From assembly GCA_048939015.1 (NCBI GenBank), contig JBHLPW010000047.1, positions 1-41,564 of the forward strand: 41,564 nt of DNA, given 5' to 3'. This DNA is from Promethearchaeota archaeon (lineage in GTDB: Archaea; Asgardarchaeota; Lokiarchaeia; Sigyniarchaeales; SOKP01). Shown here piece by piece: positions 1 to 17,176 of the stretch. Position 1 is the first letter of the stretch. Each line of letters starts with the position of its first letter. A program made the position numbers and the translations under genes. The notes beneath the pieces were generated by a model. That model did no database searches. It was not told where the DNA came from and saw only the letters and a list, made by a program, of their open reading frames with translations.

Positions 1-15
1 TAATATGTGTTTTTT

Positions 16-47
16 AAAATCAGTAAAGCCAAATAAGTACTGATTTT
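16..47. other. Inverted repeat (possible terminator or protein-binding site)
   Basis: AAAATCAGTA (16-25) / TACTGATTTT (38-47), 12-nt loop, downstream of the 165..1280 gene. Confidence 0.35.
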
Positions 48-164
48 TTAATTTTTATATTTTAATAATAGAACCTGTCTATACACAAAATAATGAACCT
101 AAAAAATACTTAAAAAACAGTTATACCAAAAGTAAATCCTAACAATTCTATAATAAAAAATCAA

Positions 165-1280
165 TCAAAGCTTACTTTTTAGGATATAAAAAATAAGTTT
201 ATGACTCTTACCAACTCTTTTGGATTTTAATCCTTTTTCTTTTTCAAATTTTTTCAATCTGGTCATTGCAACTTTATAAGTGTTGTTGATTAGTGTTGCG
301 TATTCTGGTATTGTTATTTCATTATTATTGTTAATAAGGTATTTTCTTAAATGACCAAATGGAGTTAATTCCATTGATTTGTTTATTTGTATAAATTTCT
401 CTATATCTTCTTTTATGAGTTCAAGATCAAAGTGATTACTATATATATCAATATCATATTCTCTACATGGATGGTTTTTAATTTTACGATGTGGATTGTT
501 AGGATCAGTAGAAAGTTCATCAATTATCTCATTACTTAGTCTATTTGAAAAAAATGCTATTTGTCGTGTAATTAGATACTTCTTACTCAGATATTTCTGG
601 AGTATTTCTATATGTTTTAACGTATATTTATTAAAATCAGAATCTCGTAAATTAATTAATATATTTGCGATTTCCTTACATCTGTCCAAAAATTTTTGAT
701 TCATTTCAGGAGTATCTGCTAACTCATATCGCTCTGGATTTTGTTTTGTAATAGAATCATCCCCATACCAATAACCTTGGTCATTTTTTATTCTTTTAGG
801 TGTTCCAGTTTCTTCAAAATATGTATCATATTCTATTTCTATTTTTAAATAATATTCATCATCATAGTTTAGTGGAGAATCATCTTTCATGTGCAATTCC
901 TCATAAAAACTCATTGGTTTTATGTTTGTATATCCCTTTCTTCTCCTATTAAGCTTGGTTAATCTTTCTTCAATATTTTTCTTTTCTTTATCCTCTTTCA
1001 GCCAAATTTCAAATTGATTTTTTCTGTATTCATTTTTAACTTTTAATTTTTCTAATTCTTCTTGAAATTTTACTTTAAATTGAGTTTTTTCAAACCTCGA
1101 TAATTCATTTTGCCTATGCACATACTCATTAATTTCTTTATACTTATCTTCTTTACAAAATTCATCATATTTAATTTTAGTAAAATTCTCTAACATCTCC
1201 ATACATTCAAACATATTTAAAAAAAAGTTGCGAATGTCTTCATCTGTTAGAAAACTCAATTCACTTAATTCTTTGAACAT
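165..1280 (-). CDS. Hypothetical protein, coiled-coil N-half, C-terminal winged-helix-like DNA-binding domain
   Basis: 371-aa ORF with GGGAGTGA RBS. C-terminus ITIPEYATLINNTYKVAMTRLKKFEKEKGL..KLIFYI has a wHTH pattern. Confidence 0.7.
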   Translation of the reverse strand: MFKELSELSFLTDEDIRNFFLNMFECMEMLENFTKIKYDEFCKEDKYKEINEYVHRQNELSRFEKTQFKVKFQEELEKLKVKNEYRKNQFEIWLKEDKEKKNIEERLTKLNRRRKGYTNIKPMSFYEELHMKDDSPLNYDDEYYLKIEIEYDTYFEETGTPKRIKNDQGYWYGDDSITKQNPERYELADTPEMNQKFLDRCKEIANILINLRDSDFNKYTLKHIEILQKYLSKKYLITRQIAFFSNRLSNEIIDELSTDPNNPHRKIKNHPCREYDIDIYSNHFDLELIKEDIEKFIQINKSMELTPFGHLRKYLINNNNEITIPEYATLINNTYKVAMTRLKKFEKEKGLKSKRVGKSHKLIFYILKSKL

Positions 1281-1316
1281 TTTGAATCACTCCCGAAAAC
1301 TCTTTTAAACCTCTAA

Positions 1317-1829
1317 TTAAAATTTTGATCCTATAAACCATCGAACCAAATAGAAAGTTCCTATTTTTAACCCAATATAAACAGCGATTAATGTCAGTAA
1401 TGTATTCTCATTAAATATTGCATACTGTAAAATACCGACGAGACCAAGTGAATAGATGATTGAGGTTATTAATGCGGTTAATATAAAAACCAATCCCAAC
1501 TTGTTTATTCCTTTATTATATTCACTCCATTTCTTAGATGTTCTTTTTACTCTTTTATTACGATCTTTTACTTTAATAAATCCATTAATTGCAATTAATG
1601 CTATAATTCTTCCACCAATACTACTCAAAATCAAAATAGGAAATACCTTAAGTAATACTAACTCAGAAAACTCTCTACTAAAAATCTCTGAAAGCAATAC
1701 TTTATTACCAGAATAAATCTTGAGAGATGTTGTCGCAAAAAAGAATATGAAAATAGATATTAGATTGTGTATACAAAAGTACCAGAACTGATCACCTGAA
1801 GCACGTTCGGATTTTCTATTTTCCCTCAT
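1317..1829 (-). CDS. Hypothetical integral membrane protein (~4 TM)
   Basis: 170-aa ORF with four hydrophobic segments and a basic central loop, co-oriented in the operon. Confidence 0.75.
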   Translation of the reverse strand: MRENRKSERASGDQFWYFCIHNLISIFIFFFATTSLKIYSGNKVLLSEIFSREFSELVLLKVFPILILSSIGGRIIALIAINGFIKVKDRNKRVKRTSKKWSEYNKGINKLGLVFILTALITSIIYSLGLVGILQYAIFNENTLLTLIAVYIGLKIGTFYLVRWFIGSKF

Positions 1830-1870
1830 AGTTGATTCATCTTACTGATTTTTCCACTTCTTATATTATA

Positions 1871-4800
1871 TTAACGTAGGATAATAAAAATCACTAATGC
1901 AACAGCAACCATAACCAAAATAGCTACTCCGATTGCAAATTTTGTGTCTGATGACAATCTAATCCTAAATTTTCGATATGCTCTATATCTACCATTTGAA
2001 GCTATCTCAGAAGTTCTATTAGTGGCACTTCGAATCTTTATATATAGCACAACACCGACTATGGCGATAATTATTGCTAAAATCCAAAATGCTATAACAG
2101 TAGCAGTATCATTTATTATAGGTTTAGGTATATCTGGAACTTCTGCTTCAAAAAAACCAAAATCTACTGTTTTTGTCTCAGGTAAATCTTCCCAATCCGA
2201 TAAATATTCACCTGTTTCTACAGATTTTAATCTATATTCTACATCCTCTTTTGGTAAATACTGTTCAATTGTATTCTGAGCTGAAACGGTTAAATAATCT
2301 ATTTTATCCTTATATTTTAATAAGACCTGAACTGATTCATTTCTATAATTGTTAATAAATTCCCATGCATCAATCTGACTCGTTAATAATGATGTATTTA
2401 ATCCAACATTAGTCCAATTAAGCAATTCACTAAACATCGTCATCTTATATAATTCAGTAAGGAAATCATTTTGTTGTAAGACAATTGAAAGATTTCCTGA
2501 AATTGTATTATTTATTAAGCTTAAAGAAGTGCCTAAATCTAATACAGCATTATAGATACTATTATTGATTAAATATACTGATGAATATACCTGTGAAACT
2601 AAATCACATATTGTATTATTTACTAATACCAAATTGTTCAAAATAGCAATTCTGGAATCATTTATATTAGTATTTGTAAGGGTGATTGAGTTATTTAACA
2701 AAATATAGTTATTTGTAATATTACTTCCAATCTCATCTATTGTTGTATCTAAATCGAATAATGCAGTATCAATTGAAATGTTCATTAATAATAGATTTGT
2801 TTCAAGCTGAGAAATCATTGTAGAAATCGTTCCATTTATCAAATATACATCATTACTTACTCCTATAACCAAATTCGAAATACTTTGATTTATTGAAATA
2901 AGATTATTCTCGATATAGACAAAAGAGGTATTCATAATATTATTGATATTAATAAATGAGGTGTTTGTAAACATATACAATGTAGAGATGTTATTTGCGA
3001 TGTTTTCTATATCTACATCTAAATTTAATAATAAATCTCCTAATGTAGAATTTACATTCGATAAATCTATATTAATATTTATTATGCTATTGTTAATTGC
3101 TGAATTCTGGTTTGTTAAATCTATTTGAACATTAGTAATCTGATTTCCTATTGTAGCATTTACATTGGCTATATTGTAAATTACCTGAGATAATACATTA
3201 TCTGAGTTAATAAGGAGAATATCATCACCACTTAAAGTATATGAATAATAGCTATAACTTCCCCCTTCATTATCAGTCAAATTGATTTTGTAGTATCCTG
3301 CAAACAGATTGAACTTGATAATTTCATTAGGAGCAATCCATTCACTCCAACTATAAGGAGATTCATAGTAGTTTGGATCTCTGGTTATATTAATATGATT
3401 AAATAGCTCTTGTTGGTTCATTATTTTTAAACTATATTCAGTTAGAATAATAGGAACATAATTATCTTCAGCTTGGACTATAAAAGAGTAATTTTTAATG
3501 CTAATATCAAATAAATCTTTAATCTCTACTGATATATTTTCACCTACATCTCTATAAAATACATTACTATAAATTAAATTGCCATCTACATAGGTTTTAT
3601 AGTTATTAAAGAAAAGATATTCTCCCTTTTGATTAGTATAAGTTAAAAAACACAATTTGGAACTATTTATCACTAAGATTTGATGACTTGAAAAAACAAA
3701 TTCGATTGACTCCTCTTTTCCATCTTTAGTATAATTAAATTTGTACGTTCCAGTGGTTAATGAAAATTTGATGATTTCTTCTGAAAAGATATTACCTGAT
3801 TTAATAATTTCAGTGTCTATGTTATTTAACTCATAATATACTGGATTATGATACTCATTTTTTATTTTTAACTTATAGACATTTAGTGTGATATCTATGA
3901 AAGTTTCCTCATATGTTTCATAGGTTTTTACTAATGCATTAAAAGAGTCATAAATCTTTAATTGTATTGAAGTGTCTATATCAACATATAAGATATTACT
4001 TGACAATCGTTTATTTGAATAAGTAAAATTCTCTAATGTGTAATTCACATAGGTAATGTAATCATTAAAATCTAAATGTTCGTTATTAGCATCAAAATAA
4101 TTCACATAGACAATATTATCATCAATACGTTTATATATTAGTGTTTGTAATGTTGCTGAGGTTTCTAATTGTTTAATTTCTTTTAAAATATCATTTTCAT
4201 AGATTTCTATGGTATAATTATTAGGATAGGAAAGAGTTAATTCTCTTCTTTCATATGGAGCTAAATAATAAGAATCTATTTCTGTATATGGTCTTGAAAT
4301 TTTTATAGAATCAATTACCAAATTCTTAGTATCATCAAACGTTCCAGTAAACTCTAATTGGTCAATAGTCATATTAGAATTAATTGTAAACATTTGAGTT
4401 CTTGTTTCAAAATTTCCATTCCCTTGACTTGAAAGGATATACGATTTCTGTTGTACACCATTATTTCGTAAATTAAAATCTATTCGGTTTGGTGATGATG
4501 TATTAAAAATTATTTCTACTTTATCATTAATATGTAAATCTAAGTTAAGATCGTCTGGATTTCTTAATGTTAATGTTTCAGTAGTATCTGTTTGACTATA
4601 TAATACTCCAGACCCTTGATATATTTTAGAGAGATAATAATAAAGTCGTGGTCTAAAATTTGGATTATAATATTCAGTATACAAGAAATCTACTTCAACA
4701 GGATCAACAGTATCTGAAATTAAATTATAATAAAAAATATTAGGATCTCCAGCATCCCATTCATACCAAGTAGCTCCAGATGATATATAAGTTTGAGAGA

Positions 4801-5356
4801 GATATGTTATTTCCGATGGTTGATTATTCCATGTTATCGTATCTTGATCAAAATCACTTGTAGTATATAGTTTAACATAACCAGTATCTGGAACAGTGGT
4901 AATAGCATAAAGTTTCAATATGGTATTAGAAGTATAATTATCAAGAAGATATGGAAGCTCTTCTTTAATAAAAGTCTCCCATTCATTATGCCAAACATGA
5001 TTACCACCAGCACCATATTCAGTATCTGGATCAGATGCTCTTACAGGTGCATCATCAGTAGGATTAACATAGAAGTCCATTACAAGATTAGAAACATCTA
5101 TTAATTTCCAACGATTTGAAATATTATTAAATGGCTGAAAATAAAGAGTGTTATATCCAGCAGATTCATCTATAAAATCCCATTTAGTAGTAATTCCTGA
5201 TTCTGATATTAGTTCTACATTAGGATCTGCTGAAAGATGTAATCCTGTTAAATCACGAGTAAAATAAGAATATTTTGGAGTAGAATTAATAAAAAATAAA
5301 GAAGGTAAACAAAAAAACACCAAAATCAATAGTATTTGAAATTTTTTATCTTTCAT
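1871..5356 (-). CDS. Large surface (glyco)protein / adhesin-spike: signal peptide, DNRLRE/CBM96-like domain, beta domains, 18-residue-repeat helical stalk, two C-terminal TM segments
   Basis: N-terminal hydrophobic signal. DDAPVRASDPDTEYG..LKLY..ITWNNQP..RPRL resembles DNRLRE domains. Asn/Ile-rich repeat stalk, many N-x-S/T sequons, two C-terminal hydrophobic helices. Confidence 0.75.
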   Translation of the reverse strand: MKDKKFQILLILVFFCLPSLFFINSTPKYSYFTRDLTGLHLSADPNVELISESGITTKWDFIDESAGYNTLYFQPFNNISNRWKLIDVSNLVMDFYVNPTDDAPVRASDPDTEYGAGGNHVWHNEWETFIKEELPYLLDNYTSNTILKLYAITTVPDTGYVKLYTTSDFDQDTITWNNQPSEITYLSQTYISSGATWYEWDAGDPNIFYYNLISDTVDPVEVDFLYTEYYNPNFRPRLYYYLSKIYQGSGVLYSQTDTTETLTLRNPDDLNLDLHINDKVEIIFNTSSPNRIDFNLRNNGVQQKSYILSSQGNGNFETRTQMFTINSNMTIDQLEFTGTFDDTKNLVIDSIKISRPYTEIDSYYLAPYERRELTLSYPNNYTIEIYENDILKEIKQLETSATLQTLIYKRIDDNIVYVNYFDANNEHLDFNDYITYVNYTLENFTYSNKRLSSNILYVDIDTSIQLKIYDSFNALVKTYETYEETFIDITLNVYKLKIKNEYHNPVYYELNNIDTEIIKSGNIFSEEIIKFSLTTGTYKFNYTKDGKEESIEFVFSSHQILVINSSKLCFLTYTNQKGEYLFFNNYKTYVDGNLIYSNVFYRDVGENISVEIKDLFDISIKNYSFIVQAEDNYVPIILTEYSLKIMNQQELFNHINITRDPNYYESPYSWSEWIAPNEIIKFNLFAGYYKINLTDNEGGSYSYYSYTLSGDDILLINSDNVLSQVIYNIANVNATIGNQITNVQIDLTNQNSAINNSIININIDLSNVNSTLGDLLLNLDVDIENIANNISTLYMFTNTSFININNIMNTSFVYIENNLISINQSISNLVIGVSNDVYLINGTISTMISQLETNLLLMNISIDTALFDLDTTIDEIGSNITNNYILLNNSITLTNTNINDSRIAILNNLVLVNNTICDLVSQVYSSVYLINNSIYNAVLDLGTSLSLINNTISGNLSIVLQQNDFLTELYKMTMFSELLNWTNVGLNTSLLTSQIDAWEFINNYRNESVQVLLKYKDKIDYLTVSAQNTIEQYLPKEDVEYRLKSVETGEYLSDWEDLPETKTVDFGFFEAEVPDIPKPIINDTATVIAFWILAIIIAIVGVVLYIKIRSATNRTSEIASNGRYRAYRKFRIRLSSDTKFAIGVAILVMVAVALVIFIILR
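2465..3166 (-). repeat. 13 tandem 18-aa protein repeats (helical stalk)
   Basis: Gap-free register NVNATIGNQITNVQIDLT / NQNSAINNSIININIDLS / NVNSTLGDLLLNLDVDIE ... LINNSIYNAVLDLGTSLS / LINNTISGNLSIVLQQND. Confidence 0.8.
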
Positions 5357-5359
5357 TTT

Positions 5360-5698
5360 TTAAACCACACTAATTATTGTATAATAATTTTCCATTAATA
5401 CCCAAATTCCAACAATATTTATGAAGATTATTCCAATCAAGAACAGTTCTTGAATACAATTGTAATTTATCTTGAAATAGATTAAAGAATTAAACATGAA
5501 AAGAGAGATAATAAGCCCAATAAATAAAATTATTAATAATATTGGATTCTGAATTATTTGAGTAGCGAATGGATTTAATTCTTGAAAATTATTTTTGCTT
5601 ATCCAATAAAAAGTAGTTATAACATCTGTTATTTTTAAGAAAATATAGCTTATTACAAAGAAATTATTAATTAAAAACACGAGTTTTTCATTTTTCAT
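5360..5698 (-). CDS. DUF5658-like small membrane protein
   Basis: 112 aa, 3 TM, motif DVITT....ELNP typical of DUF5658. GGAGTGA RBS. Confidence 0.7.
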   Translation of the reverse strand: MKNEKLVFLINNFFVISYIFLKITDVITTFYWISKNNFQELNPFATQIIQNPILLIILFIGLIISLFMFNSLIYFKINYNCIQELFLIGIIFINIVGIWVLMENYYTIISVV

Positions 5699-5703
5699 CT
5701 ACT

Positions 5704-5862
5704 TCACTCCTTTACATTTAGTTCTTTCCTTAAAATCTCATCTACAACATTCTCTATTGTATTACCTTCATCTACAGCTCTCTTCTTTAGTATTCCATGT
5801 ACTTCTTCATCCAGATGAACTGATTTCTTATTATACGGAGATGATCTTTCTTTAGATGACAT
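5704..5862 (-). CDS. Ribbon-helix-helix (CopG/Arc-like) regulator, not in the ORF track
   Basis: Manual translation MSSKERSSPYNKKSVHLDEEVHGILKKRAVDEGNTIENVVDEILRKELNVKE (52 aa) shows the RHH strand-helix-G-helix pattern. Its stop codon overlaps the RBS of the next gene. Confidence 0.85.
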   Translation of the reverse strand: MSSKERSSPYNKKSVHLDEEVHGILKKRAVDEGNTIENVVDEILRKELNVKE

Positions 5863-5901
5863 TTTTTGAAAATTTTATAATTTTATAATTTTATAAAATA
5901 A

Positions 5902-6013
5902 ATTTCTATGAGTACATATAAATATATGTCTTTAAAATAAGCTCTACTAAACCAATTTCTCACTTCTATGAAACTTTATAAATATAAATAGTCTAATGAT
6001 AAGTATATTAATA
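5902..6013. promoter_or_regulatory. Duplicated promoter cassette, copy 1
   Basis: Aligns with 7662-7782. Contains a minus-strand TTTATATG box upstream of the RHH gene and a plus-strand GAAACTTTATAA box. Confidence 0.65.
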
Positions 6014-6097
6014 AATTCTTAATATTAGTAATTTAGTTCTACAATCATACAATTTCAATAATTAAATTTTTCAAAAAATAGATATAATATAAAAAAA

Positions 6098-7585
6098 CTA
6101 TTTTCTTCTTCTTAATATTGTTTCAATTTCCTTTCTTCGTTGTCTTCCTTTTATAATTGGAACACCAACATAAATGAATAAAACAATTCCACCTACAACT
6201 ATCAATATTACAATTATCCATGTTATTATATCAAAATCACCAAATAAACCTCCTGCCTCAGTTGTATGGGTTTCGCCACCTCCAAATCCATCAACAGTAG
6301 TTAGCCATAATAATAGATCGTAATATTCAGCTGGAAAACTAAGATCATAATCCTCAATATCATCAGAACCAACATCTATTTTGTATGAACAGAAAACATC
6401 AAAAACCACCTTGATCTTCGTTTGAATATACCGATTTGTACAATGTAATGCTACTGGTTTTGTATAAGACTGATCGTTTTGAGTATTACTATGCTCTTTT
6501 ATACCTATATGTAAAAACGCATCCCAATAATCTATTGAACGATAAAAAATGTATCTGAAAGATAATGTCCCATAGTATTCCATGACAAGTGGACTTAATG
6601 AACCAATATGATAAATGAACTTACAGTCTTTCATTGATGTTTGCTTCACTTCTGGATTCCAAATAGGATCTCCATTTTTAGTAGTTGGATTCATAGAACT
6701 TCCTGCAGTTTGTGGTAATATACCACCATCCCAACTGTTTTGTGGAGTAGTAGGAATATTTAACTGTATATTTGGATTATAATATGCATCAAAAGTTCTG
6801 GTTTTGCTTCTAATATTATTCATTATTGATGAAGTGGGATTTTGCATACTACTATATTCTTCTTCATAGTCTCGTGGTGTTATTCCAACAACAGTAGGAA
6901 CAGAATTGTCTAATTTACCATATACATTATCTACAACTGCAACTGAAGAAACAGCGATATAATCAAAATTCTTAGTAAGAGAATCTCCAGAAACAGTATT
7001 AAAATTAGGAAGTAAATTCTGTGCAATATCAAAAGACATAACTAAATCACCACCAAAATCACTGTGGAGAGAGTTCCACTGTTTTATATTCCCGAAATCA
7101 TAATGATTCCATGTGACATATTCTTCCCAGCCATGCATTACATCTCCCATAAGTCCAAGATGTTGATATTTTGCTACCAGATACTCCTCTTTTACTTGTT
7201 CTAACTTATTATTTTCAGCACAATCTACAACATCCAATGTAGTATACATATTAACTTTGCTTGTCATAGCAACCTTATATCTTATATAAGCATTATCTCC
7301 ATCTGTATAAATGTCTAATAATTCTATATCATCAGGATAAATATTCCAAGAAGCTTGAGACTCGAACTGGAGTTTTTGATTAATTGCCTGTCCTGATAAA
7401 CTTACTGAACTTCCATCGAATGTTTCAAATTTAAAATTCTTTATTAAATCATTCGAAACAATATATGTATCTCCTTCAGCAAATGGACTGAATCCTGTAA
7501 TCGATATACCAGCTATAAGTATTAAAGAAACGACAAAAATTGAAATGAATAGAACTTTTTTGGATTTAGATTTTTTCGATTTCAC
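6098..7585 (-). CDS. Membrane-anchored beta-rich protein (signal peptide + C-terminal TM); candidate spike/fusogen
   Basis: 495 aa, GTG start with GAGGAG RBS. N-terminal signal, ~410-aa ectodomain with 4 Cys, C-terminal TM plus basic tail. Function is inference only. Confidence 0.7.
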   Translation of the reverse strand: MKSKKSKSKKVLFISIFVVSLILIAGISITGFSPFAEGDTYIVSNDLIKNFKFETFDGSSVSLSGQAINQKLQFESQASWNIYPDDIELLDIYTDGDNAYIRYKVAMTSKVNMYTTLDVVDCAENNKLEQVKEEYLVAKYQHLGLMGDVMHGWEEYVTWNHYDFGNIKQWNSLHSDFGGDLVMSFDIAQNLLPNFNTVSGDSLTKNFDYIAVSSVAVVDNVYGKLDNSVPTVVGITPRDYEEEYSSMQNPTSSIMNNIRSKTRTFDAYYNPNIQLNIPTTPQNSWDGGILPQTAGSSMNPTTKNGDPIWNPEVKQTSMKDCKFIYHIGSLSPLVMEYYGTLSFRYIFYRSIDYWDAFLHIGIKEHSNTQNDQSYTKPVALHCTNRYIQTKIKVVFDVFCSYKIDVGSDDIEDYDLSFPAEYYDLLLWLTTVDGFGGGETHTTEAGGLFGDFDIITWIIVILIVVGGIVLFIYVGVPIIKGRQRRKEIETILRRRK

Positions 7586-7661
7586 TATGAGTTCTCCTCT
7601 CTTTTAAGTATTATTTTTACTATTTACTTTTCCTTTAAATTATTATAATATTATAAAAGAG

Positions 7662-7782
7662 ATTTCTATAAAAACATTTAAATATTTGTACTTATGATAT
7701 ATAAAATAGAACCCATTAATCCACTTTCTTATTTTTGTGAAACTTTATAAGCATAATTAGTCTAAGAATAATTAAATTAATA
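7662..7782. promoter_or_regulatory. Duplicated promoter cassette, copy 2
   Basis: 7715-7782 aligns ungapped to 5946-6013 (54/68 identical by hand count). Minus-strand TTTAAATG box upstream of the 495-aa gene. Confidence 0.65.
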
Positions 7783-7971
7783 TAATTTTAAAAATAATTA
7801 TTCAGCTTTCTATTTACCAAATTTTAGTACTGAATTTCATTGAAAATAGGTTCTTTTTTTAAAAAGGTGAATATTATATCATTTTTTTAAAAAAACGAGC
7901 TAAAACAGGCTAAAAACAGGTATAAATGGATGTAATAAAAATAGAGCTAATACGTTTTTATAATAAAAGAA

Positions 7972-8356
7972 TATAAAATAGGAGTAGAAAGCTGGAAACT
8001 ATTATAAAATATCTTTTTGAAAAAAGATATAAAATAAAAAAATAAAATATGATTTTAATAATTATATTTTATATGTTTTTTTAAAGCGGAATTTTCTAAG
8101 TCAAAATATTTAAAGAATAAAAATTTTTTTCTGAAAAATATATCTCATCATATATAATACACAAATTTATGTTGCGAGCTTATTGACTACATGGTTATTT
8201 AATTTCTTTTTTGATTTATGGTATTATTTTTCAAAAAAGTTAAAAAATGATTAAACTTTATAAAATAGGAGTAGAAAGCTTATAAGGAGTTTTTTGAAAA
8301 AAGATATAAAATATAATGGGATATATTCTTTATTATATTTTATATGTTTTTTTAAA
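7972..8356. repeat. Three-block direct repeat in a non-coding region (candidate origin/iterons)
   Basis: TATAAAATAGGAGTAGAAAGCT (7972-7993, 8259-8280), TTTTTGAAAAAAGATATAAAATA (8014-8036, 8291-8313), ATTATATTTTATATGTTTTTTTAAA (8061-8085, 8332-8356). Confidence 0.85.
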
Positions 8357-8403
8357 TAACCCGTAGGATTAAGATGGAGTAAAAAAGAATAAATCTATTT
8401 GCT

Positions 8404-10563
8404 TTATAGATAATATATAGATTTAGGCTTTCCTCCTTTCTTAGATGGAATGATTGTTTTAATCTTTAAATTTTTATTTCTAACATAGTTATCTAATTTC
8501 TTTTTCGCGATGTAATAAGATATATTATATAACTCCATACAGTCATCTATGGTAATCTGATGATGTTCGGTTAAAAAATCTTTAAGTCTTTTATCGAGTT
8601 CTTTTGTTATACCTCGTTTTTTATCACCGATTTCCTTAAAATAAGATTGTAATTCTCTATGATTCCTAAATGTAATAACCTTTACATTTTCAACATTATT
8701 ATAACCAAGATCCAATCCAGATAATTCTAAACAGAATTTATCATTAATACCACGCATCATACGTCCCATTGCTTGACTCATTTCTGTTTGAGCTTTTTCT
8801 TCCCGATATTCATCTGGATTTATACTAAAAAAAGTAGATTCACGATTGATATGACCACTTGGAATATCAGGAGTTCCAAAAAGTATTGTAGAATTAAAGT
8901 TTTCATATTCATTAGTACCAGCTAATGGATATCTTACACATGTTAGGTTATCATTAGTTTTTTTTATGTATTTCCATAAACGAGTATTAGGTTGTTCATC
9001 ACTCGGTTTAGTTCGTACTTTCATATCTCTTGATACAAATAAATGTTGTCCAATTTCTGGAAAAGCATATATATATGCTTCCATATCTTCTTTTAATCTT
9101 TTCAGTGTTGAATATCGTTGTATTGATGCTTTTGGATAATATGCAAATTTCCTGTTAAAGCCACCCTTTCGTTTGTGTGGATATTCCAGTTTATATATTG
9201 TAAGATTATTCGAAACCATATTTTTCTTGTAAATCTGTAATCGATCACCAAATATCTTTTGTAATTTTAATATACTGGCAGTAGCATCATTTATAATAAG
9301 TTTAATGATTTTTTCAGTATCTAACATCTCAACTATACTGTGAAAATCATAATATAACATTCCTATACGATATTGAGGTGTATTATCATCAGGATTTTTG
9401 TTTTTAAATTTAACTCTTAAGATGACTTTTTCCAGCCAGTTATCTATATTTGTAGGATCTGTTTTTTTCATATAAAAATAGTTTCTAATAAATGAAAGGA
9501 TGTGATAAAAATAAAATCGTTTAAATGGGAAACTATTTGGTCTTATATTTTTATTTTCTAATTGTCTATTTCTCTTTTCATTTTTTTCCAGTATCTTCCA
9601 TGCTTGTGTGTTTAGGATATTAATACTCTCACCATCAACATCAAAACAATCTTCCATGCAATCTAATATATCTTTAATCTTCTTGTAATCAAGCTCATTA
9701 ATAATTCCTTCTTTTAACAGGTTTAAAAATTCTAAAAGCATTTCAAAATCAGCTAAATAGAATATAGTTTTTGAGGTCTTTTTCAACTCCAAATCCATTA
9801 TAACTTTTTCTAAAAATGTAATGTTCTTGTTAAGAGTAGAAAGATAAATTTTATTATTTGTTTTAATAGCATTCTCGAAATCTTCATCTATGACTAAAAC
9901 CATCCTGTCTAATCTTGTTAGCCAAATCGGAATGAATTTGTTTATTTGATGAGATACAGTTAAACATAAACTTACATAGGATGGTGGAAATAATTCACGT
10001 ATTTTACAAAAGTAAGGACACATATTATCTCGATGTTCACATTTACGACATAAATAATCAATGGATAATCCTATTTTTTCCGCACACTCTACTAATGGAT
10101 CAATTCTACGCAAACAAGTACGTCCTTTACCTTCAAAAATAAGATAATTTAATGGAACTTGTGCAAACTTCTCTATTTGACGTTCAAATTCTTTTACTCC
10201 TTGTTCATATTGTTGTCCAAGCAATACTATTGCTGTTCGTTCTTTTTCCACCATGAAATCAATTGTATAACGTATGATATTTAATATCCATTGTATAATA
10301 TTCGCTGTTTTCCCTGCTCCAGTAGATAATTTCACGAGATTTATTATTTTATCATTTAAGAAAATGTCTTTATAGATGAAATTCACTTCCATCCATTGTT
10401 TTTTCAGTCTTTCAGGTACATCAAGAGATTTTTGTTCATTTAAAATTTTTTTATGGATTTTATTTATTAAATCATCATTGTAGTGATATGCAACACCATC
10501 ATACAATTCTTCATGTTTCTTTTTATTATTTTTTAAATTTTCAAAAAAAGTTGGTTCAGTCAT
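8404..10563 (-). CDS. SF2 helicase, DinG/XPD-like with Cys cluster and C-terminal wHTH; probable replication protein of the element
   Basis: Walker A STGAGKT, Cys cluster GRTC..C..CRKC..CPYFC, Walker B LVIDED, motif III DAT, motif VI QAMGRMMR. GGGAG RBS. Confidence 0.75.
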   Translation of the reverse strand: MTEPTFFENLKNNKKKHEELYDGVAYHYNDDLINKIHKKILNEQKSLDVPERLKKQWMEVNFIYKDIFLNDKIINLVKLSTGAGKTANIIQWILNIIRYTIDFMVEKERTAIVLLGQQYEQGVKEFERQIEKFAQVPLNYLIFEGKGRTCLRRIDPLVECAEKIGLSIDYLCRKCEHRDNMCPYFCKIRELFPPSYVSLCLTVSHQINKFIPIWLTRLDRMVLVIDEDFENAIKTNNKIYLSTLNKNITFLEKVIMDLELKKTSKTIFYLADFEMLLEFLNLLKEGIINELDYKKIKDILDCMEDCFDVDGESINILNTQAWKILEKNEKRNRQLENKNIRPNSFPFKRFYFYHILSFIRNYFYMKKTDPTNIDNWLEKVILRVKFKNKNPDDNTPQYRIGMLYYDFHSIVEMLDTEKIIKLIINDATASILKLQKIFGDRLQIYKKNMVSNNLTIYKLEYPHKRKGGFNRKFAYYPKASIQRYSTLKRLKEDMEAYIYAFPEIGQHLFVSRDMKVRTKPSDEQPNTRLWKYIKKTNDNLTCVRYPLAGTNEYENFNSTILFGTPDIPSGHINRESTFFSINPDEYREEKAQTEMSQAMGRMMRGINDKFCLELSGLDLGYNNVENVKVITFRNHRELQSYFKEIGDKKRGITKELDKRLKDFLTEHHQITIDDCMELYNISYYIAKKKLDNYVRNKNLKIKTIIPSKKGGKPKSIYYL

Positions 10564-10588
10564 TTTTAACTCCCTTGTTATTAATAAT

Positions 10589-10615
10589 ACCGATGTCGGT
10601 TATTTATAAACTTTT
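10589..10615 (-). promoter_or_regulatory. Helicase promoter (BRE/TATA) with operator-like palindrome
   Basis: Minus strand reads CAAAAGTTTATAAATA, immediately followed by the palindrome ACCGA-N2-TCGGT (10589-10600), then the RBS and ATG. Confidence 0.55.
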
Positions 10616-10716
10616 GTCCTATTCACTGAAATATAAACCTCGTTTAATAAAATAAATTAATTTATAAAATCGGCTAATAAAGTTAGTGTGAGACTAATTA
10701 TACATATAAACTTTTT

Positions 10717-10810
10717 TTATTATCTACTCAGTTTCGAGTAGATACTAACTGATTGTGATCTTAGAATATTATTCTCGTATATGATCTACCCAGTTTTGAG
10801 TAGATATTAA
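10717..10810. other. Two dif/lox-like palindromic sites (arms + 6-bp spacer)
   Basis: TTATTATCTACTC-AGTTTC-GAGTAGATACTAA (10717-10748) and ATATGATCTACCC-AGTTTT-GAGTAGATATTAA (10779-10810). Confidence 0.6.
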
Positions 10811-10876
10811 AAATTTACTAAAAAACCAAAACATTTAAATTCAACCTATAACTATTATGCTTGGTGGTTTTTTCAC

Positions 10877-10941
10877 TTCATTGTTTTCTCTTAGATGTGT
10901 ATTTTCTCCCTTGTTAGTACATGTCTGAGAAAAACAATGAA
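10877..10941 (+). ncRNA. Putative hairpin small RNA with an anti-RBS loop
   Basis: 24-bp stem with one bulge and three G-U pairs that form only on the plus strand. The 16-nt loop contains CUCCCUUGUUA, complementary to the helicase mRNA RBS region. Confidence 0.5.
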
Positions 10942-11352
10942 CTTCTTTAATAAGAATTACTAAAATAAAGTATTTTTAAAATAAATTACTTAATTTACTT
11001 CATTTTTGAATATCCATTTTAATTTACACTCATAAGAGCAAAAATAATGAGCTATACTAATTTTCTAAACTTATAAACCTCGTTTATATAAACCTCGTTT
11101 ATAATCCTAAAAATCGGTTTAAAATCTTTAATCCTGAATTATATATATATTTTCAAAAATAAAAAAATCGTTCCTAAAAAAGCCTGAAAATAGAGGTTTA
11201 TGAAAAATTTAAAAAAATTATTTTATTTTTAGGTAATTTTCAAATATTAAAACCATTAAAAATATGGTGCATTTCTTTATAATAGATTTTTTTAATAGAT
11301 AAAATATAAAAAATAAACCTATATTTTTAATAAATTAAATTGGTTTAAAACC

Positions 11353-12621
11353 TTAGATTTCATCTTTTTTGATACCATGGTATTCTAATCGTGCTTCTGC
11401 TTCGGTTATTTCTCCTTTCTTTATTCTTTTTTCTAAATCATCCCGATAATAAAGATCGTCAAATAAAGATTTCATTTCTTCTCTCATATTATTCATTTCC
11501 TCTTTGTACAAGTCTTTCATAGCTTCTAACTCATCTTTAAGTTCTTTATTTTCTTCTTTTAGTCTTTGGATATCTTCTTTTTCTTCTAACCTATCAATCA
11601 CTATTCTTTCCTTATTAACAACATGACCACATTTATAACAAAAAGCATTTTGTTGGTTGTTTTCAGTTTTACAGACTTCACAAATAATCTTTTTAAAGGT
11701 TTTAGCTTTTGTTTTTTTTGGTTTTTGTCCATTCTGCTCTAACAAAATGTTCCTTATATCAGTATCATCTATATGAAAATAAATGGATGCCATTTGAGAT
11801 TCTTTTGTCCATCCTGCAAATTTTCTTAATTGTGGTTCATTTAGTTTGGTTAATGCAAGCTCAGTCAAGCGACTGTGTCTAAATAAATGAGGATGCAAAT
11901 CCTTATTCCAATCAGGATATCTTTTTTTTAATTTTTCAGTTAGTCTGCTGTAATATGTTGTGATCCATTGGGGATGATAATCAAATATCTTATCTTCTGG
12001 TTTAAAATCATTCTGATTAAAATATTCTCTTAGATATGGCACAGATTCAATTAAAGTAATGTTTCTCGATACTGTCTTTGATTTTCCAATATAGATATCA
12101 AGAAATTCTTCATCTTTTTCAGGAAATTTCACATCTCTAAATAATATATTAACTAACTCATCTCTTCGCAGTGCTCCCTCATAATTCACCATAATCATGG
12201 CTCTTTTTTTCATACCAACATTTTTAAGAATTAAATCTAATTCTTTTCTGGAAATCAAATCAGTTTTATTTAATTCCTTGCTTTTCATACTATAAGTTGG
12301 AAATATTTCAATTAAGTCCTTTCTCTCAAAATAATCAAAATACTTCTTTAATTCAGATAAATAGGTGTTTTTAGTTCTATTGGATAATTTTTTAAATTTC
12401 TCGTTATTTATGAGATCTTTAATATCATCTTTAGTTAAGTTTTTTGGAACAAATTTACCTGTTAAATCATAGAATCTACTGAGAGCATTTAAATTGGTTT
12501 GTTGTGAATGATATGATAACTGTTCTAATTTAAATGTAAAATAATCATCAAAAACAGGGTTTAAAAGAATTAATTCATTCTTTTTATCATTTACATATGA
12601 ACCTTTATTAGCTTGAGTCAT
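11353..12621 (-). CDS. Tyrosine recombinase/integrase with C-terminal Zn ribbon and coiled coil
   Basis: Catalytic residues R (GALRRDE), K (KSKT), HxxR (HLFRH), GW, Y (IYFH). CEVC..CYKC ribbon. TTTAAATG box ~24 nt upstream, suggesting a leaderless mRNA. Confidence 0.92.
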   Translation of the reverse strand: MTQANKGSYVNDKKNELILLNPVFDDYFTFKLEQLSYHSQQTNLNALSRFYDLTGKFVPKNLTKDDIKDLINNEKFKKLSNRTKNTYLSELKKYFDYFERKDLIEIFPTYSMKSKELNKTDLISRKELDLILKNVGMKKRAMIMVNYEGALRRDELVNILFRDVKFPEKDEEFLDIYIGKSKTVSRNITLIESVPYLREYFNQNDFKPEDKIFDYHPQWITTYYSRLTEKLKKRYPDWNKDLHPHLFRHSRLTELALTKLNEPQLRKFAGWTKESQMASIYFHIDDTDIRNILLEQNGQKPKKTKAKTFKKIICEVCKTENNQQNAFCYKCGHVVNKERIVIDRLEEKEDIQRLKEENKELKDELEAMKDLYKEEMNNMREEMKSLFDDLYYRDDLEKRIKKGEITEAEARLEYHGIKKDEI

Positions 12622-12900
12622 AATTAAATAATGAAAATTTTAACATTTAAATTTAACTATAAACTCTTTTCATTATTTATATTATAACTATAAATACAAA
12701 TTTATAATTTTATTTATCAAACGAAATTACGTTATTCTACTTAAAACAAAGAAATTGATCATAAATAAATTGTTTTAAATTACCATTGTTTAGTAAAAAT
12801 GCGAAATTTCCAAAAGTTAAATTATAATTAAATTTACAATTTGTGTTATTAGAAGTAAAATGCTTGATCTTCTATTGAAAATCTGAAAAAATTGTGGTTT

Positions 12901-13785
12901 CTAAGTTAGTCTATGAGCTTCTTCACAGATATCAGCATTTTCAAACCATTTATTGAGTTTACCTAATTCTTGCTGAGGAAATTCATATGAATATTCCCGA
13001 TTAGGATAAATTCCATTTATAACTTCATCCTTATAATCATTTAAAGCATGACGAATGGATTCACCTAAATTACTAAAATATTTAAGAAATTTTGGTTTAA
13101 AATCAGTGAATATTCCCAACATATCATGTATAACTAAAATTTGACCGTCACAATAAGGTCCAGCACCAATTCCTATAGTAGGGATTTCAACACTATTTGT
13201 GATTAATTTAGCTAATTGCCAAGGTATACTTTCTAAAACAATCGAAAAAACTCCTGCTTCTTCTAGATTTTTTGCATCAAGTATTAATTTCTTTGCAGCT
13301 TCTACAGTTTTGCCTTGGACTAAAAAACCTCCAAACTCATAAATTGCTTGTGGAGTTAAGCCAATATGACCCATAACTTGAATATCTGCATTAATCATTG
13401 CTTTAATTGTGGAGCAAATTTCAGTACCTCCTTCAACTTTAACAGCTTCTGCACCCCCTTCTTGGATAAATCTCCCTGCATTTTTAACGGCTTCCACTTT
13501 ATCAACTTTATATGAAAGAAAGGGCATATCCCCTATGATTAATGCATTTGACACACCTCGACTCACTGCTTTTGTATGATGAATCATTTCATCCATAGTA
13601 ACTGAAAGTGTGTTAGTATAACCAAGCATAACCATCGAAAGTGAATCTCCTACTAAGATCAAATCAATCCCACTTTCGTCAACTATTTTTGCAAAGGAAT
13701 AATCATAGGAGGTGATGGTAACTATTTTTTCGCCTTTTTTTTTCTTTTCGATGATATTATTTATAGTGACTTTTTGTAATGACAT
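12901..13785 (-). CDS. panB: 3-methyl-2-oxobutanoate hydroxymethyltransferase
   Basis: [35 protein letters not shown] and DGQILV motifs. Confidence 0.97.
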
Positions 13786-14021
13786 ATGTTCAAATAACTA
13801 ATCCGTTTTCAAAAATTTTATGGTAGATTGATTGTTATTTTGTGAAAATCTTTCAAATTATTTCTTCTCTATTATGTTTTTTTTAGATTTTGATAAATTA
13901 AAGCTCTCAAAAAATATGTTTGAAATATAACTTTGATTTAAATTCAATTTAATCAAACTTTTTTGATAAGACTTTTTAACAAAAGCTTCATATATTATTC
14001 CTACTAACTAATTAAAAGAGA

Positions 14022-15059
14022 TTGAGACATATGGTAGAACCAAAAGATATAGATTTCTATTCATTGGGTTTTAACTTTATTGAAACAAAAACAATGTTTA
14101 TAGCTACTCATAAAGATGGTAAATGGGATAGTGGTCAATTAGTGCCATTTGGAAATTTTGAAATATCACCAGCATCTTGTGTCTTAAATTATGGTCAAGG
14201 CATCTTTGAAGGAATGAAAGCATTAAGAACAAAAAATGGAGAAATAACATTATTTCGTCCTGAAGAAAATGCGAAGAGATTTAATTTTAGCGCTAAGAGA
14301 ATGCTGATGCCAGAATATGAGACTGATAGATTTATTGATGCTGTGAAAAAAGTAGTAAAAGAAAATGAAGAATACATTCCTCCATATGATAGTGGAGGAG
14401 CTTTATATATTCGCCCAATTTTATTTGGTTATGGACCGATCCTAGGTGTACACTCAGCAAAAGAATTTAAGTTTATGGTTTTTACAGTACCTGTCGGTCC
14501 TTACTTTCCAGAAGGTTTTCAAGGAATCAAATTAGAAATCTCAAAACAATATACTAGAGCAGCTCCAGGTGGGACAGGGTCAGCAAAAACAATATGTAAC
14601 TATGCTGGAACAATGCTACCAGCAAAAGAAGCCAAAGCAAGAGGGTTTGCTCAAATCATATATTTGGATGCCGTTCATATGGAATATATCGAAGAAGTTG
14701 GTGCAGCTAATTTTTTCGCGATGATTAATGGTAAATTAGCAACTCCAAGAAAGAGCGGAACAATATTAGAAGGTATTACAAGAGAATCCATTTTGGAACT
14801 TACTTCAAAACAATTAGGGATAGAAGTTGAGGAAAGAGATATTTCATACAAAGAATTATTTGATTCTTCATGTACTGAAGCATTTTGCAGTGGAACTGCT
14901 GCCGTAATAACACCGATTGCATCAGTAAATTTAGAAGGGAAAGAGAGGATCTTCAATGATGGAGCTCCAGGAGAAATAACTAAAAAAGTATATGAATTAT
15001 TAACAGGTATACAAAGGTTAGATCTTGAAGATCTGTATGGATGGATGATGAAATTTTGA
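14022..15059 (+). CDS. ilvE: Branched-chain amino acid aminotransferase (true start may be ATG 14031)
   Basis: LNYGQGIFEGMKA, LFRP, LYIRP, AKTICNY, EEVGAAN, ILEGITR and GTAAVITP motifs. Confidence 0.95.
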   Translation: MRHMVEPKDIDFYSLGFNFIETKTMFIATHKDGKWDSGQLVPFGNFEISPASCVLNYGQGIFEGMKALRTKNGEITLFRPEENAKRFNFSAKRMLMPEYETDRFIDAVKKVVKENEEYIPPYDSGGALYIRPILFGYGPILGVHSAKEFKFMVFTVPVGPYFPEGFQGIKLEISKQYTRAAPGGTGSAKTICNYAGTMLPAKEAKARGFAQIIYLDAVHMEYIEEVGAANFFAMINGKLATPRKSGTILEGITRESILELTSKQLGIEVEERDISYKELFDSSCTEAFCSGTAAVITPIASVNLEGKERIFNDGAPGEITKKVYELLTGIQRLDLEDLYGWMMKF

Positions 15060-15067
15060 CTTTTTTT

Positions 15068-15571
15068 TTAAATTCTTTCTATGAGAGATAAAAATGCTTG
15101 CTTAACATTTTCTCCAGTTTTAGAGGATATTTTTAAATATCCAATAATATTATTGTATCTTTTTATTATATCTATTATACTATCATCAAAAGCTTTACAC
15201 TCATAAACATCAATAGTGTCAGATTTGTTTCCTAGTATGAAAATAGGTATATTACCATTTTCATTTAATTTTTTTATCCATTCTTCAACACCTGAAAGAG
15301 TATTAAAACGAGATAAGTCAAATAATACAAATGCAGCAATAGAACCATCAACAAAGTCATCTAAAATTTTTTTGAATTGAATTTGCCCCGCAAAATCCCA
15401 CATTACAAAATTATATTCTTGACCATTTATTAAAAGATTTTTTGAGAAAAAGTCGATACCTTTAGTTAACTCATTATTAACGTTGAAGTTATCATGAATT
15501 AATCGATTGAGAAATGAAGTTTTCCCTACACCACCATCTCCAGAAACAATGACTTTTACTGTTTTTCTCAT
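15068..15571 (-). CDS. Small Rab/Ras-like GTPase
   Basis: G1 GDGGVGKT, G3 WDFAGQ, G4 NKSD, G5 SSK. Confidence 0.92.
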   Translation of the reverse strand: MRKTVKVIVSGDGGVGKTSFLNRLIHDNFNVNNELTKGIDFFSKNLLINGQEYNFVMWDFAGQIQFKKILDDFVDGSIAAFVLFDLSRFNTLSGVEEWIKKLNENGNIPIFILGNKSDTIDVYECKAFDDSIIDIIKRYNNIIGYLKISSKTGENVKQAFLSLIERI

Positions 15572-15752
15572 AATAATATAGATTGTTTTGGTTTTAATTT
15601 AAAAAAGTACAATAAAATATGATTTCCGTAATAGTATAACATAAAAAAAATTTTCTATGGTTGGTTTTTTCCTTACTTAAATGTAAAGAGGAATATTTTG
15701 GATCGTTTAAAAGAGAAAAAAAAAGAATATTCCAGGGAGTATACTCTGTTTA

Positions 15753-16154
15753 TCATATTCTGAGAAGTTGTGAACTTCCAGTACATATAAGTTCTCCCTT
15801 TTCATTCCACACTTTTGCCTTACAAAAGAAAATATTTTTCCCACTCTTAAGACATTTAGCTTTTGCTATCAAACGTCCCTCTGTCACTGATTTTAGAAAT
15901 TCAACTTGTAAATCTATTGTCGTGATATACCCATCGGGTAGAATTAAAGACAATGCAGCACATCCACATGTAGAATCGACAAGAGAAGCTAACACCCCCC
16001 CATGGATCATTCCGTTCTGAGTAAGTTCCTCTCTTATTTCAATCTCGAATATAGCTTTTCCATCCGCAATTTCTTGTAGTTCAAAACCTAATGTTGAGTA
16101 ATACGGGATTTTTTCATAGAGAAATTTTATTAAATTGTTCATAGTAAATAACAC
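15753..16154 (-). CDS. PaaI family thioesterase (hotdog fold)
   Basis: QNGMIHGGVLASLVDSTCGCA motif. Confidence 0.9.
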   Translation of the reverse strand: MLFTMNNLIKFLYEKIPYYSTLGFELQEIADGKAIFEIEIREELTQNGMIHGGVLASLVDSTCGCAALSLILPDGYITTIDLQVEFLKSVTEGRLIAKAKCLKSGKNIFFCKAKVWNEKGELICTGSSQLLRI

Positions 16155-16246
16155 TCCACTTTAGAATTTAATAATTTTTATTATATGTAAAAAAGTTGGA
16201 TTTCGACAGACAAAAAAATAAAACCTAAGAAACCCAATTAAGTATT

Positions 16247-17131: not shown

Positions 17132-17176
17132 ATAATTTGATATATAAGGAATAATTCAAATCTTTATGCATTAAGC

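Follow-up and report, generated by a model that had tools for sequence, protein, structure and literature searches.

What kind of element lies next to the panB gene at the left end of a Lokiarchaeial contig, how did it come to be there, and is it a virus? The window analysed here is the whole of contig JBHLPW010000047.1 (contig C28; 41,564 nucleotides) of the Promethearchaeota metagenome-assembled genome (MAG) GCA_048939015.1, here called G000, which comprises 4.86 Mb in 125 contigs at about 30% GC, with an estimated contamination of 6.5%. An original prediction, made from the DNA alone, had described positions 1-12700 as an integrated element of an Asgard-type archaeon, carrying eight co-oriented genes and possibly representing a pleolipovirus-like provirus. 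The Asgard host is borne out by panB, whose product shares 88% identity with its counterpart in Promethearchaeota archaeon Loki_b32; the 20 best matches come throughout from Loki-type Asgard MAGs, identifying the host as Lokiarchaeial. The eight genes were likewise recovered, all on the minus strand, in the transcription order integrase, orf719, orf495, orf52, orf112, orf1161, orf170 and orf371 (Table 1), and the GC content of this part is 0.23-0.30, with a figure of about 0.25-0.27 for the element, against about 0.30 for the genome. Weighing the evidence set out below, we lean towards a previously undescribed family of capsid-less, plasmid-like elements that integrate into the Lokiarchaeial chromosome; kinship to pleolipoviruses is not supported. 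The literature searched contains no description of the element family, its helicase or its membrane-protein module.

The element is integrated at a 15-bp core between panB and the gene of a Ras-like GTPase. Of 20 related Lokiarchaeial loci, 17 have an orthologous gene for a GTPase of 540-590 amino acids (aa) about 200-450 bp after panB, and on the other flank of panB the window has the same gene order as its relatives (aminotransferase and onward). When the open reading frames (ORFs) from the 20 loci around panB were searched against the whole of G000, the GTPase orthologue was found on another contig, C23, where further genes follow it. On its other side, 420 non-coding bp separate the GTPase start from a co-oriented DNA methyltransferase gene. 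The 15-bp direct repeat TATAGTTATAATATA (in the panB sense) is present in two exact copies, one at each junction. The match of the 15-mer alone was reached in 19 of 1000 shuffles, and a short BLAST search for the att partner inside the genome returned AT-rich noise only; the partner came from synteny with the relatives. Joined together, the panB-side arm of the window, the core and the GTPase-side arm of C23 reproduce, base for base, the intergenic region of five relatives (L006, L007, L009, L010 and L011), in each of which the core is exact. The insertion site is empty in all related genomes examined, and no element genes were seen in synteny with panB in relatives. The predicted integrated state is thus confirmed by the empty sites, the 15-bp repeats and the outer arms that rebuild the relatives' site. 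In one of these relatives (L007; JBHLLP010000023.1, about 11100-11170), a tandem duplication of about 28 bp contains the att core, which is hence present twice; this duplication could be the footprint of an earlier integration and excision there.

Sequence data from the source study agree with this arrangement. A Logan unitig (11133-12717) from the source run extends from the integrase gene through the core. In another run of the same study, one contig agrees with the window rightward from exactly 12678; to the left of this position stand, in reverse complement, the 15 bases found after the core in L016, so that this contig represents the empty site of a related species. The source-run contigs span the element completely, at the depth of the host strain (about 7); stretches that lack cover in runs X2-X4 carry no meaning in these contig data. 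The same run (X1) also contains a second close strain (depth about 8.6 versus 7.1) that differs at several panB positions. The presence of two strains accounts for the doubled depth to the right of about 13350 (window 13351-13360 and rightward), and there is no copy-number step at the att site.

The element extends from window position 12692 to 1 and, after a gap, from C23 position 10142 to 8904, giving a total of at least 13.9 kb, of which about 1.2 kb lie on C23. The earlier suspicion that it was cut at the left edge was therefore right, since the window is a whole contig and the element resumes on C23 with the methyltransferase gene and attR. No tailed-virus or conjugation module was seen in the recovered C23 flank. 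The gap between the two contigs may be small, because the methyltransferase is short of only a few N-terminal residues. Contig-end overlaps gave no bridge between C23 and C28, either directly or via a third contig, and an exact look-up of orf371 for a longer contig returned no record. Scans for tRNA genes and Rfam families found none in the window, and a simple repeat finder detected no CRISPR arrays in G000.

Table 1. Location of the element, its genes and non-coding features, its borders and the related loci that carry parts of its membrane module (TM, transmembrane; RHH, ribbon-helix-helix; SF2, superfamily 2).
Feature	Location	Strand	Remarks
Window	whole contig C28 of G000		source genome contig
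orf371	165..1280	minus	no family match; last gene before contig break
orf170	1317..1829	minus	4-TM membrane protein, family F4; no Pfam match
orf1161	1871..5356	minus	giant 1161-aa surface protein; CBM96 at aa 95-202
orf112	5360..5698	minus	3-TM protein, Pfam DUF5658; directly upstream of giant gene
orf52	5704..5862	minus	52 aa, probable RHH; FitA-like RHH 5e-4 (below Pfam cut-off), Arc-like PHROG 0.006
Upstream region of RHH-DUF5658-giant unit	5863..6097	minus	copy 1 of promoter/operator-like cassette of about 150 nt
orf495	6098..7585	minus	type-I-like membrane protein; no Pfam match
Upstream region of orf495	7586..7830	minus	copy 2 of cassette of about 150 nt
AT-rich non-coding region	7831..8403	.	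pair of repeats of about 130 nt, about 280 bp apart; several palindromes
orf719	8404..10563	minus	719 aa, SF2 helicase of XPD/DinG/RTEL1 fold
Integrase-helicase interval	10564..11352	.	789 bp, non-coding; two short hairpins, palindrome at 11062-11113
Tyrosine integrase	11353..12621	minus	422 aa; Pfam Phage_integrase 6.5e-13 (49 bits, cut-off 27), PHROG integrase 1e-20
attL core	12678..12692		15-bp direct repeat, 56 nt upstream of integrase ATG
panB	12901..13785	minus	ketopantoate hydroxymethyltransferase; host flank, outside element
attR core	G000:C23 8904-8918		second exact copy of the 15-bp repeat
N4/N6 DNA methyltransferase	C23, inside attR		cut by contig end; SPPY motif, PHROG 1.2e-41
Ras-like GTPase	G000:C23 8835 to 7219		C-terminal Zn ribbon; orthologue of relatives' panB neighbour
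C76 copy	G000 C76 (L004 8212-19137)		NikA-like RHH (172 aa), 310-aa integrase of L097/L150 family, orf495, DUF5658, giant >2247 aa
L097, L150			module after integrase of about 190 aa, family unlike the window's
L099			most of module
L098			F5-orf495 part; giant gene none seen
L092/L129, L094, L095			helicase combined with giant, F6, F4 or F5

The integrase gene is intact in the integrated state. Its product has a SAM-like N-terminal domain, a catalytic domain, a C-terminal Zn ribbon and a charged coiled-coil tail, and motif inspection gives R152, K180, H245, R248, W271 and Y281 as candidate catalytic residues. Among 135 genomes of the family, 11 carry homologues, several of which are pseudogenes with stop codons. 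In G000 itself, an integrase 40% identical to that of the window heads a 15-kb defence island on contig C43 (locus L005, about 2300-17700), located between pyrD and Nop5 and containing AAA_15/Schlafen, DUF4145, DpnII-like restriction endonuclease and TIR-AbiTii genes and an orf170 homologue, with no giant protein. The pyrD-Nop5 interval of another genome (G227:C1, about 445000-472200; L147, L144) contains a 27-kb element headed by an integrase 65% identical to that of the C43 island, with a cargo that includes a 976-aa giant protein, an orf170 homologue (F4), a ParB-like gene and DUF3800. This interval is a second insertion hot spot of the window's integrase family, with different cargo. The integrase domain matches, the occurrence of homologues in few genomes and their presence at another hot spot with different cargo speak for the mobility of this integrase family. 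A C43-like island is also present in a third genome (G185:C46; L143), elsewhere on the chromosome.

The presumed replication helicase of the element, orf719, contains the motifs GAGKT at residue 82, DEDFE at 226 and GRMMRG at 600. Four cysteines between Walker A and Walker B (C150, C172, C175 and C182) do not vary among the five closest homologues and form a plausible candidate iron-sulfur (Fe-S) site; invariant in the family are GAGKT, DE(D/N)FE, the four intervening cysteines and QxxGRxxRG. The family is small and confined to mobile-element-like contigs, with four homologues among 5.8 billion clustered proteins and, in a profile search of 1.84 billion representatives, 72 homologues, about 20 of them full length. 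No PDB sequence match was obtained, even with a profile, and the orf719 profile gave no significant hhalign match to a 692-aa protein of the C43 island. Judged by sequence, no curated model covers this helicase family. The assignment of the fold comes from structure prediction. The AlphaFold model is poor (pLDDT 57), and its longest structural matches are to DinG and XPD (VIA-align: DinG 9ii8, Z 9.2 over 340 aa; XPD 2vl7, Z 8.8 over 375 aa; XPD 3crv, Z 8.4 over 407 aa). The ESM Atlas model (pTM 0.71) matches RTEL1 with a TM-score of 0.66, and archaeal DEAD_2/Helicase_C_2 clusters with TM-scores of 0.53-0.60 normalized by query and 0.67-0.74 by target. The protein thus shares with the XPD/DinG/RTEL1 helicases the overall fold, the two RecA-like domains, Walker A, Walker B and motif VI, and the four-Cys insertion between Walker A and Walker B. 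By contrast, its Walker B is DEDF instead of DEAH, it matches neither Pfam nor PDB by sequence, and it adds a C-terminal domain of 60 residues predicted to form a helix-helix-hairpin, winged-helix-like structure. Two distant relatives of orf719, on co-oriented, orphan-rich contigs of about 10-11 kb, have gene neighbours of the replication type: for one (L149; Logan SRR3715733_199798) these are a FEN1/XPG nuclease, a GHKL-type ATPase and a short integrase, for the other (L148; JGI Ga0180430_10005161) a class-I/II ribonucleotide reductase.

The non-coding DNA and the small proteins around the helicase may be involved in replication and regulation. The AT-rich, repeat-containing region beside the helicase gene is a candidate replication origin. 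In the interval between integrase and helicase, the two hairpin copies lie at 10714-10743 and 10784-10813 (ATCTACTCAGTTTCGAGTAGAT and ATCTACCCAGTTTTGAGTAGAT), 70 nt apart. The C-terminal domain of orf719 recurs at the C-terminus of orf371, whose last 60 or so residues are paralogous to it (BLASTP 9e-7 against the L092 helicase C-terminus). Probably, as far as can be read from its sequence, orf371 is a DNA-binding regulator or origin-binding protein; BLASTP against a 335-aa protein of the C43 island was not significant. The original prediction also counted an RHH gene, and the reading frame is present as orf52, while its identity as an RHH protein draws on weak matches only. A promoter/operator-like cassette precedes both membrane-protein transcription units, and a partial, weaker likeness to it, inverted and 72% identical (7740-7799 versus 10655-10714), is found upstream of the helicase. 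Among the eight window ORFs, four have no Pfam match, and only the integrase and, weakly, the RHH protein match PHROGs.

The remaining genes encode a set of membrane and surface proteins. orf495 consists of an N-terminal TM segment or signal, a beta-rich ectodomain of about 420 aa, a C-terminal TM segment and a basic tail. Its 36 homologues come, without exception, from Loki-type MAGs or sediment metagenomes, three of 400 genomes from the phylum contain it, and it is missing from all 53 further genomes of the genus. The predicted structure (pLDDT 76) shows a long beta-rich ectodomain flanked by N- and C-terminal helices. Foldseek searches with this model against PDB and BFVD gave nothing at E <= 0.001, comparison with the ESM Atlas gave TM-scores of at most 0.22, and a PDB-wide VIA-align search yielded no convincing relative, with a best Z of 6.1 to glycosidase beta-sandwich domains; double-jelly-roll (DJR) or HK97 capsid proteins and the pleolipovirus spike are absent among the fold matches listed, and the missing fold relatives do not show that the fold is new. 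The giant protein orf1161 consists of an N-terminal hydrophobic leader, a CBM96 domain, beta-rich repeats and two C-terminal TM helices, with an Asn/Ile/Leu-rich segment of about 300 aa (aa ~700-1000) holding most of its 35 N-x-S/T sequons. Its homologues in L004, L092 and L094 are 41-53% identical; every score in an Atlas feature search with orf1161 was below 0.8, and these were not used. A homologue of the DUF5658 protein orf112 occupies the equivalent position in the C76 copy. Among the small genes of the group, orf170 (F4) is shared most widely, occurring in L092, L095, L099 and L150, in the C43 island and in the G227 element.

All-against-all comparison of the fetched loci revealed that these genes belong to a recurring module with the order (F5, about 340 aa)-orf495-(Ig-like, other anchored)-small TM-giant-(Rce1-like protease)-F6 (4 TM)-x-F4. 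At least three integration or replication sets, unrelated to one another, accompany the module (Table 1), and the element in the window looks like one combination of the module with such a set. A second copy in G000, on C76, encodes an orf495 protein 78-80% identical to that of the window and a giant protein with 53% identity over 539 aligned residues; the C76 giant gene is cut by the contig end, and contig C16 may carry the remainder. In relatives, small proteins of 76-91 aa with two hydrophobic helices are encoded directly upstream of the giant gene. In L097, L099 and L150 the giant gene is followed by a gene for an Rce1-like (CPBP) intramembrane protease, and in L099 it is also preceded by that of a weak M50B-like protease, a hint at processing of the surface proteins within the membrane; neither protease is encoded in the visible part of the window element. 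Pfam searches with the larger proteins of L092, L094, L095 and G227 returned NosD/beta-helix, ParB-like, DUF3800 and weak helix-turn-helix or Zn-ribbon matches, and no capsid or packaging family. The contig of the closest relative (JAHLWN010000018.1) is 28.9 kb long, and all but about 3.2 kb of it was compared.

A mechanism consistent with these features can be proposed for a capsid-less integrative element. The circular form would recombine with the chromosome via the 15-bp core, and replication would be aided by the XPD/DinG-fold helicase, whose winged-helix tail, perhaps together with orf371, may recognise an origin in the repeat-rich DNA at 7831-8403 and 10564-11352. The cassette of about 150 nt before the two membrane-protein transcription units would be the target of the RHH and winged-helix proteins, and the methyltransferase would guard the element against restriction by the host. 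The membrane module (orf495, the DUF5658 protein, the giant, presumably glycosylated protein and the 4-TM protein) would be displayed on the host cell surface, as selected cargo (for adhesion or surface variation) or as a means of reaching new cells.

Several points weigh against this reading. No circular or excised form was seen in the run data, which consist of contigs only and have the two att sites on separate contigs. The gap between C23 and C28 could contain structural or packaging genes, and most of the proteins are orphans, so that an unrecognised capsid is weak evidence. The Pfam models DEAD_2 and Helicase_C_2 match neither orf719 nor ten of its distant relatives, and hhalign of the orf719 profile with the host's own XPD is not significant (7% probability). 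In addition, the module is constant across unrelated integrases and replication genes, in analogy to the morphogenetic modules of archaeal viruses rather than to plasmid cargo.

The last point leads to the foremost alternative, rather unlikely in our estimate, that the element is the provirus of a new Asgard virus lacking an icosahedral capsid (pleomorphic and enveloped, or spindle-shaped), or else a plasmid spread by vesicles. In the viral version, the giant protein and/or orf495 would be the spike or adhesin, and the small proteins with 2-4 TM segments the membrane or capsid proteins. The module order is kept beside unrelated integrases and replication genes in the window, C76, L097, L099, L150, L092, L094 and G227, and the same mix of variable replication genes with a conserved structural block has been published for pleolipoviruses and wyrdviruses (bioRxiv 10.1101/2021.07.29.453957). 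In genomes, the module occurs seldom and in a scattered pattern, and the two-helix proteins of the relatives (76-91 aa) match His1-type capsid proteins in size and shape. Integration at an intergenic, non-tRNA site is also known from the provirus of a cultured Lokiarchaeum (bioRxiv 10.64898/2026.02.13.705702).

On the other side, no similarity to virus proteins was detected by any of the searches. PHROG hmmscan of the membrane proteins gave nothing, nor did tblastn searches of 50,697 GenBank phage and archaeal-virus records with the giant protein, orf495 and the helicase, nor IMG/VR scans with the latter two. Eight module-family profiles were compared by hhalign with 17 HRPV-1 and His1 proteins, a comparison whose power is limited by single-sequence templates and orphan folds; the best probability against HRPV-1 VP3, VP4 and VP8 and 12 His1 proteins was 3%, and the orf495, DUF5658, F4, F6 and F7 profiles gave at most 1% against VP3 and VP4. 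The two-helix proteins of the relatives (76-87 aa in this comparison) reached 0.7% against His1 VP21, and the window itself has no such ORF, the equivalent position being occupied by DUF5658, a Pfam domain of unknown function. In the 13.9 kb, an NTPase for morphogenesis or packaging is not visible: a VP8-type NTPase reached 0.5% in hhalign, there was no AAA-type Pfam or PHROG match and no AAA+ or FtsK-type ATPase in sight, the SF2 helicase is the sole P-loop protein, and a pI-like or B251-like morphogenesis ATPase was not found in the visible part. The pleolipovirus-like provirus of the original prediction accordingly finds no sequence or fold link. Its statement that capsid, terminase, packaging ATPase and VirB4/VirD4 genes are not recognisable stands, with no Pfam or PHROG match to a capsid, terminase, packaging ATPase or conjugation protein in the visible part of at least 13.9 kb, and no Pfam match to a VirB4/TraG-type ATPase, coupling protein or relaxase among the nine visible proteins (the gap lying outside the search). 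The contigs show neither excess coverage nor a free form, and the C43 island, headed by the same integrase family, combines defence genes with F4 and has no giant protein. Because the proteins are orphans and part of the element is missing, these negatives only lower the probability of a virus.

Several known systems can be compared with the element. The archaeal cryptic integrated elements and integrative plasmids with an intact tyrosine integrase of the pNOB8 type, reportedly described by Krupovic et al. in 2019 (Environ Microbiol 21:2056; cited in PMC13573593), resemble the window element in their terminal tyrosine integrase, left intact on integration, their short border repeats, their many orphan genes, their helicase and methyltransferase genes and the lack of a recognised capsid. 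Unlike these, the window element targets an intergenic promoter instead of a tRNA gene, encodes an XPD/DinG-fold helicase that is a Pfam orphan and ends in a winged-helix tail, and carries a conserved multi-gene membrane and surface module. The plasmid pR1SE of Halorubrum lacusprofundi, which is said to be borne by vesicles (Erdmann et al. 2017, Nat Microbiol), is alike in concept only, as a replicon without capsid genes that has several membrane proteins and is able to integrate. Capsid-less, integrase-bearing mobile genetic elements have been reported from Asgard archaea (PMC13700489) and belong beside the cryptic integrated elements in this comparison.

Among viruses, Pleolipoviridae (HRPV-1, FJ685651) resemble the element in their small genome, in a protein of about 500 aa with a leader and a C-terminal anchor beside small multi-TM proteins, in a conserved block of membrane-protein genes amid variable replication genes and, in some members, in integration by a tyrosine integrase. 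They differ in showing no detectable similarity to the window element in VP3, VP4, VP8 or ORF6/7, in lacking a giant glycoprotein such as that of 1161 aa and in infecting haloarchaea rather than an Asgard host. His1 (Halspiviridae) and the Asgard wyrdviruses share with the element's relatives a two-helix protein of about 80 aa before a large adhesin, and small membrane proteins after it; the wyrdviruses, likened here by their published description, also share the Lokiarchaeial host range (bioRxiv 10.1101/2021.07.29.453957). By contrast, the window has no pI-like AAA+ ATPase and a DUF5658 protein rather than a 2-TM protein before the giant gene, and the module shows no similarity to His1 VP21 or its neighbours. 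Fylgjavirus 1 (FylV1), the 16.1-kb provirus of the cultured Ca. Lokiarchaeum ossiferum B36 (bioRxiv 10.64898/2026.02.13.705702), is comparable in its Lokiarchaeial host, its size of about 16 kb, its tyrosine-recombinase-like integration and its intergenic, non-tRNA site in a conserved region, but encodes a DJR capsid protein and a packaging NTPase, neither of which was recognised in the window element.

A broader proposal, to which we likewise give only limited credence, is that the module (orf495, a small TM protein, the giant protein and the 4-TM protein, with F5, F6 and Rce1-like proteins in relatives) is the transmission apparatus of new, Lokiarchaeia-specific capsid-less agents (enveloped pleomorphic viruses, or plasmids borne by vesicles or cell contact) that swap integrases and replication genes freely and retain the module. 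Indirect support for spread by membranes or contact comes only from the recurrence of the module beside unrelated integrases.

Less probable still is that the locus is a fixed genomic island, an immobile remnant whose surface proteins now serve the host in partner adhesion or surface variation. The element depth equals that of the host strain with no free form among the contigs, several integrase homologues in related genomes are pseudogenes, and giant surface proteins of the Laminin_G/CBM type are common in Promethearchaeota chromosomes. However, none of the nine visible ORFs is disrupted, the integrase having a full set of candidate catalytic residues, the two att cores are identical, and the helicase and methyltransferase have no obvious host use; moreover, the insertion is absent in every other genome examined (for orf495, 53 of the same genus), which points to a recent event. 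That the locus is core chromosome, or an assembly chimera joining foreign DNA to the panB contig, is close to refuted: window and C23 are contigs of a MAG with some estimated contamination, and the 15-mer alone is modestly unlikely by chance, but reciprocal junctions occur on two independent contigs, each with half of the relatives' site, the source-run unitig crosses the core from the integrase gene, and the relatives have no element genes at the panB site.

The element bears on the study of Lokiarchaeia in several ways. Only one Asgard virus has so far been cultured, and genetic tools for Lokiarchaeia are being sought (bioRxiv 10.64898/2026.02.13.705702); an exact 15-bp attachment site together with an intact integrase could become an integration tool for these archaea. 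The element also offers a replication helicase family outside all curated models, and a conserved surface-protein module carried by several unrelated Loki elements. If this module is a transfer device, it would be a new route of gene movement between Loki cells, and if it is the transmission apparatus of capsid-less agents, it would represent membrane-based gene transfer in Asgard archaea that is unrelated to known virus families; if it is cargo only, large adhesins would be horizontally traded in Lokiarchaeia.

The insertion also rearranges the probable control region of the neighbouring host gene. The att core lies within a conserved block of about 45 nt (tataaataaaattataaatttgtatt plus core) upstream of the relatives' GTPase gene, probably the promoter of that gene. 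After insertion, the conserved upstream half of the block (on the side of window 12693-12740) stands 56 nt before the integrase gene, and the GTPase gene is left with the core and the downstream part of the block only (C23 8836-8903). With half of this presumed host promoter before it, the integrase may be transcribed from the host promoter when the element is integrated.

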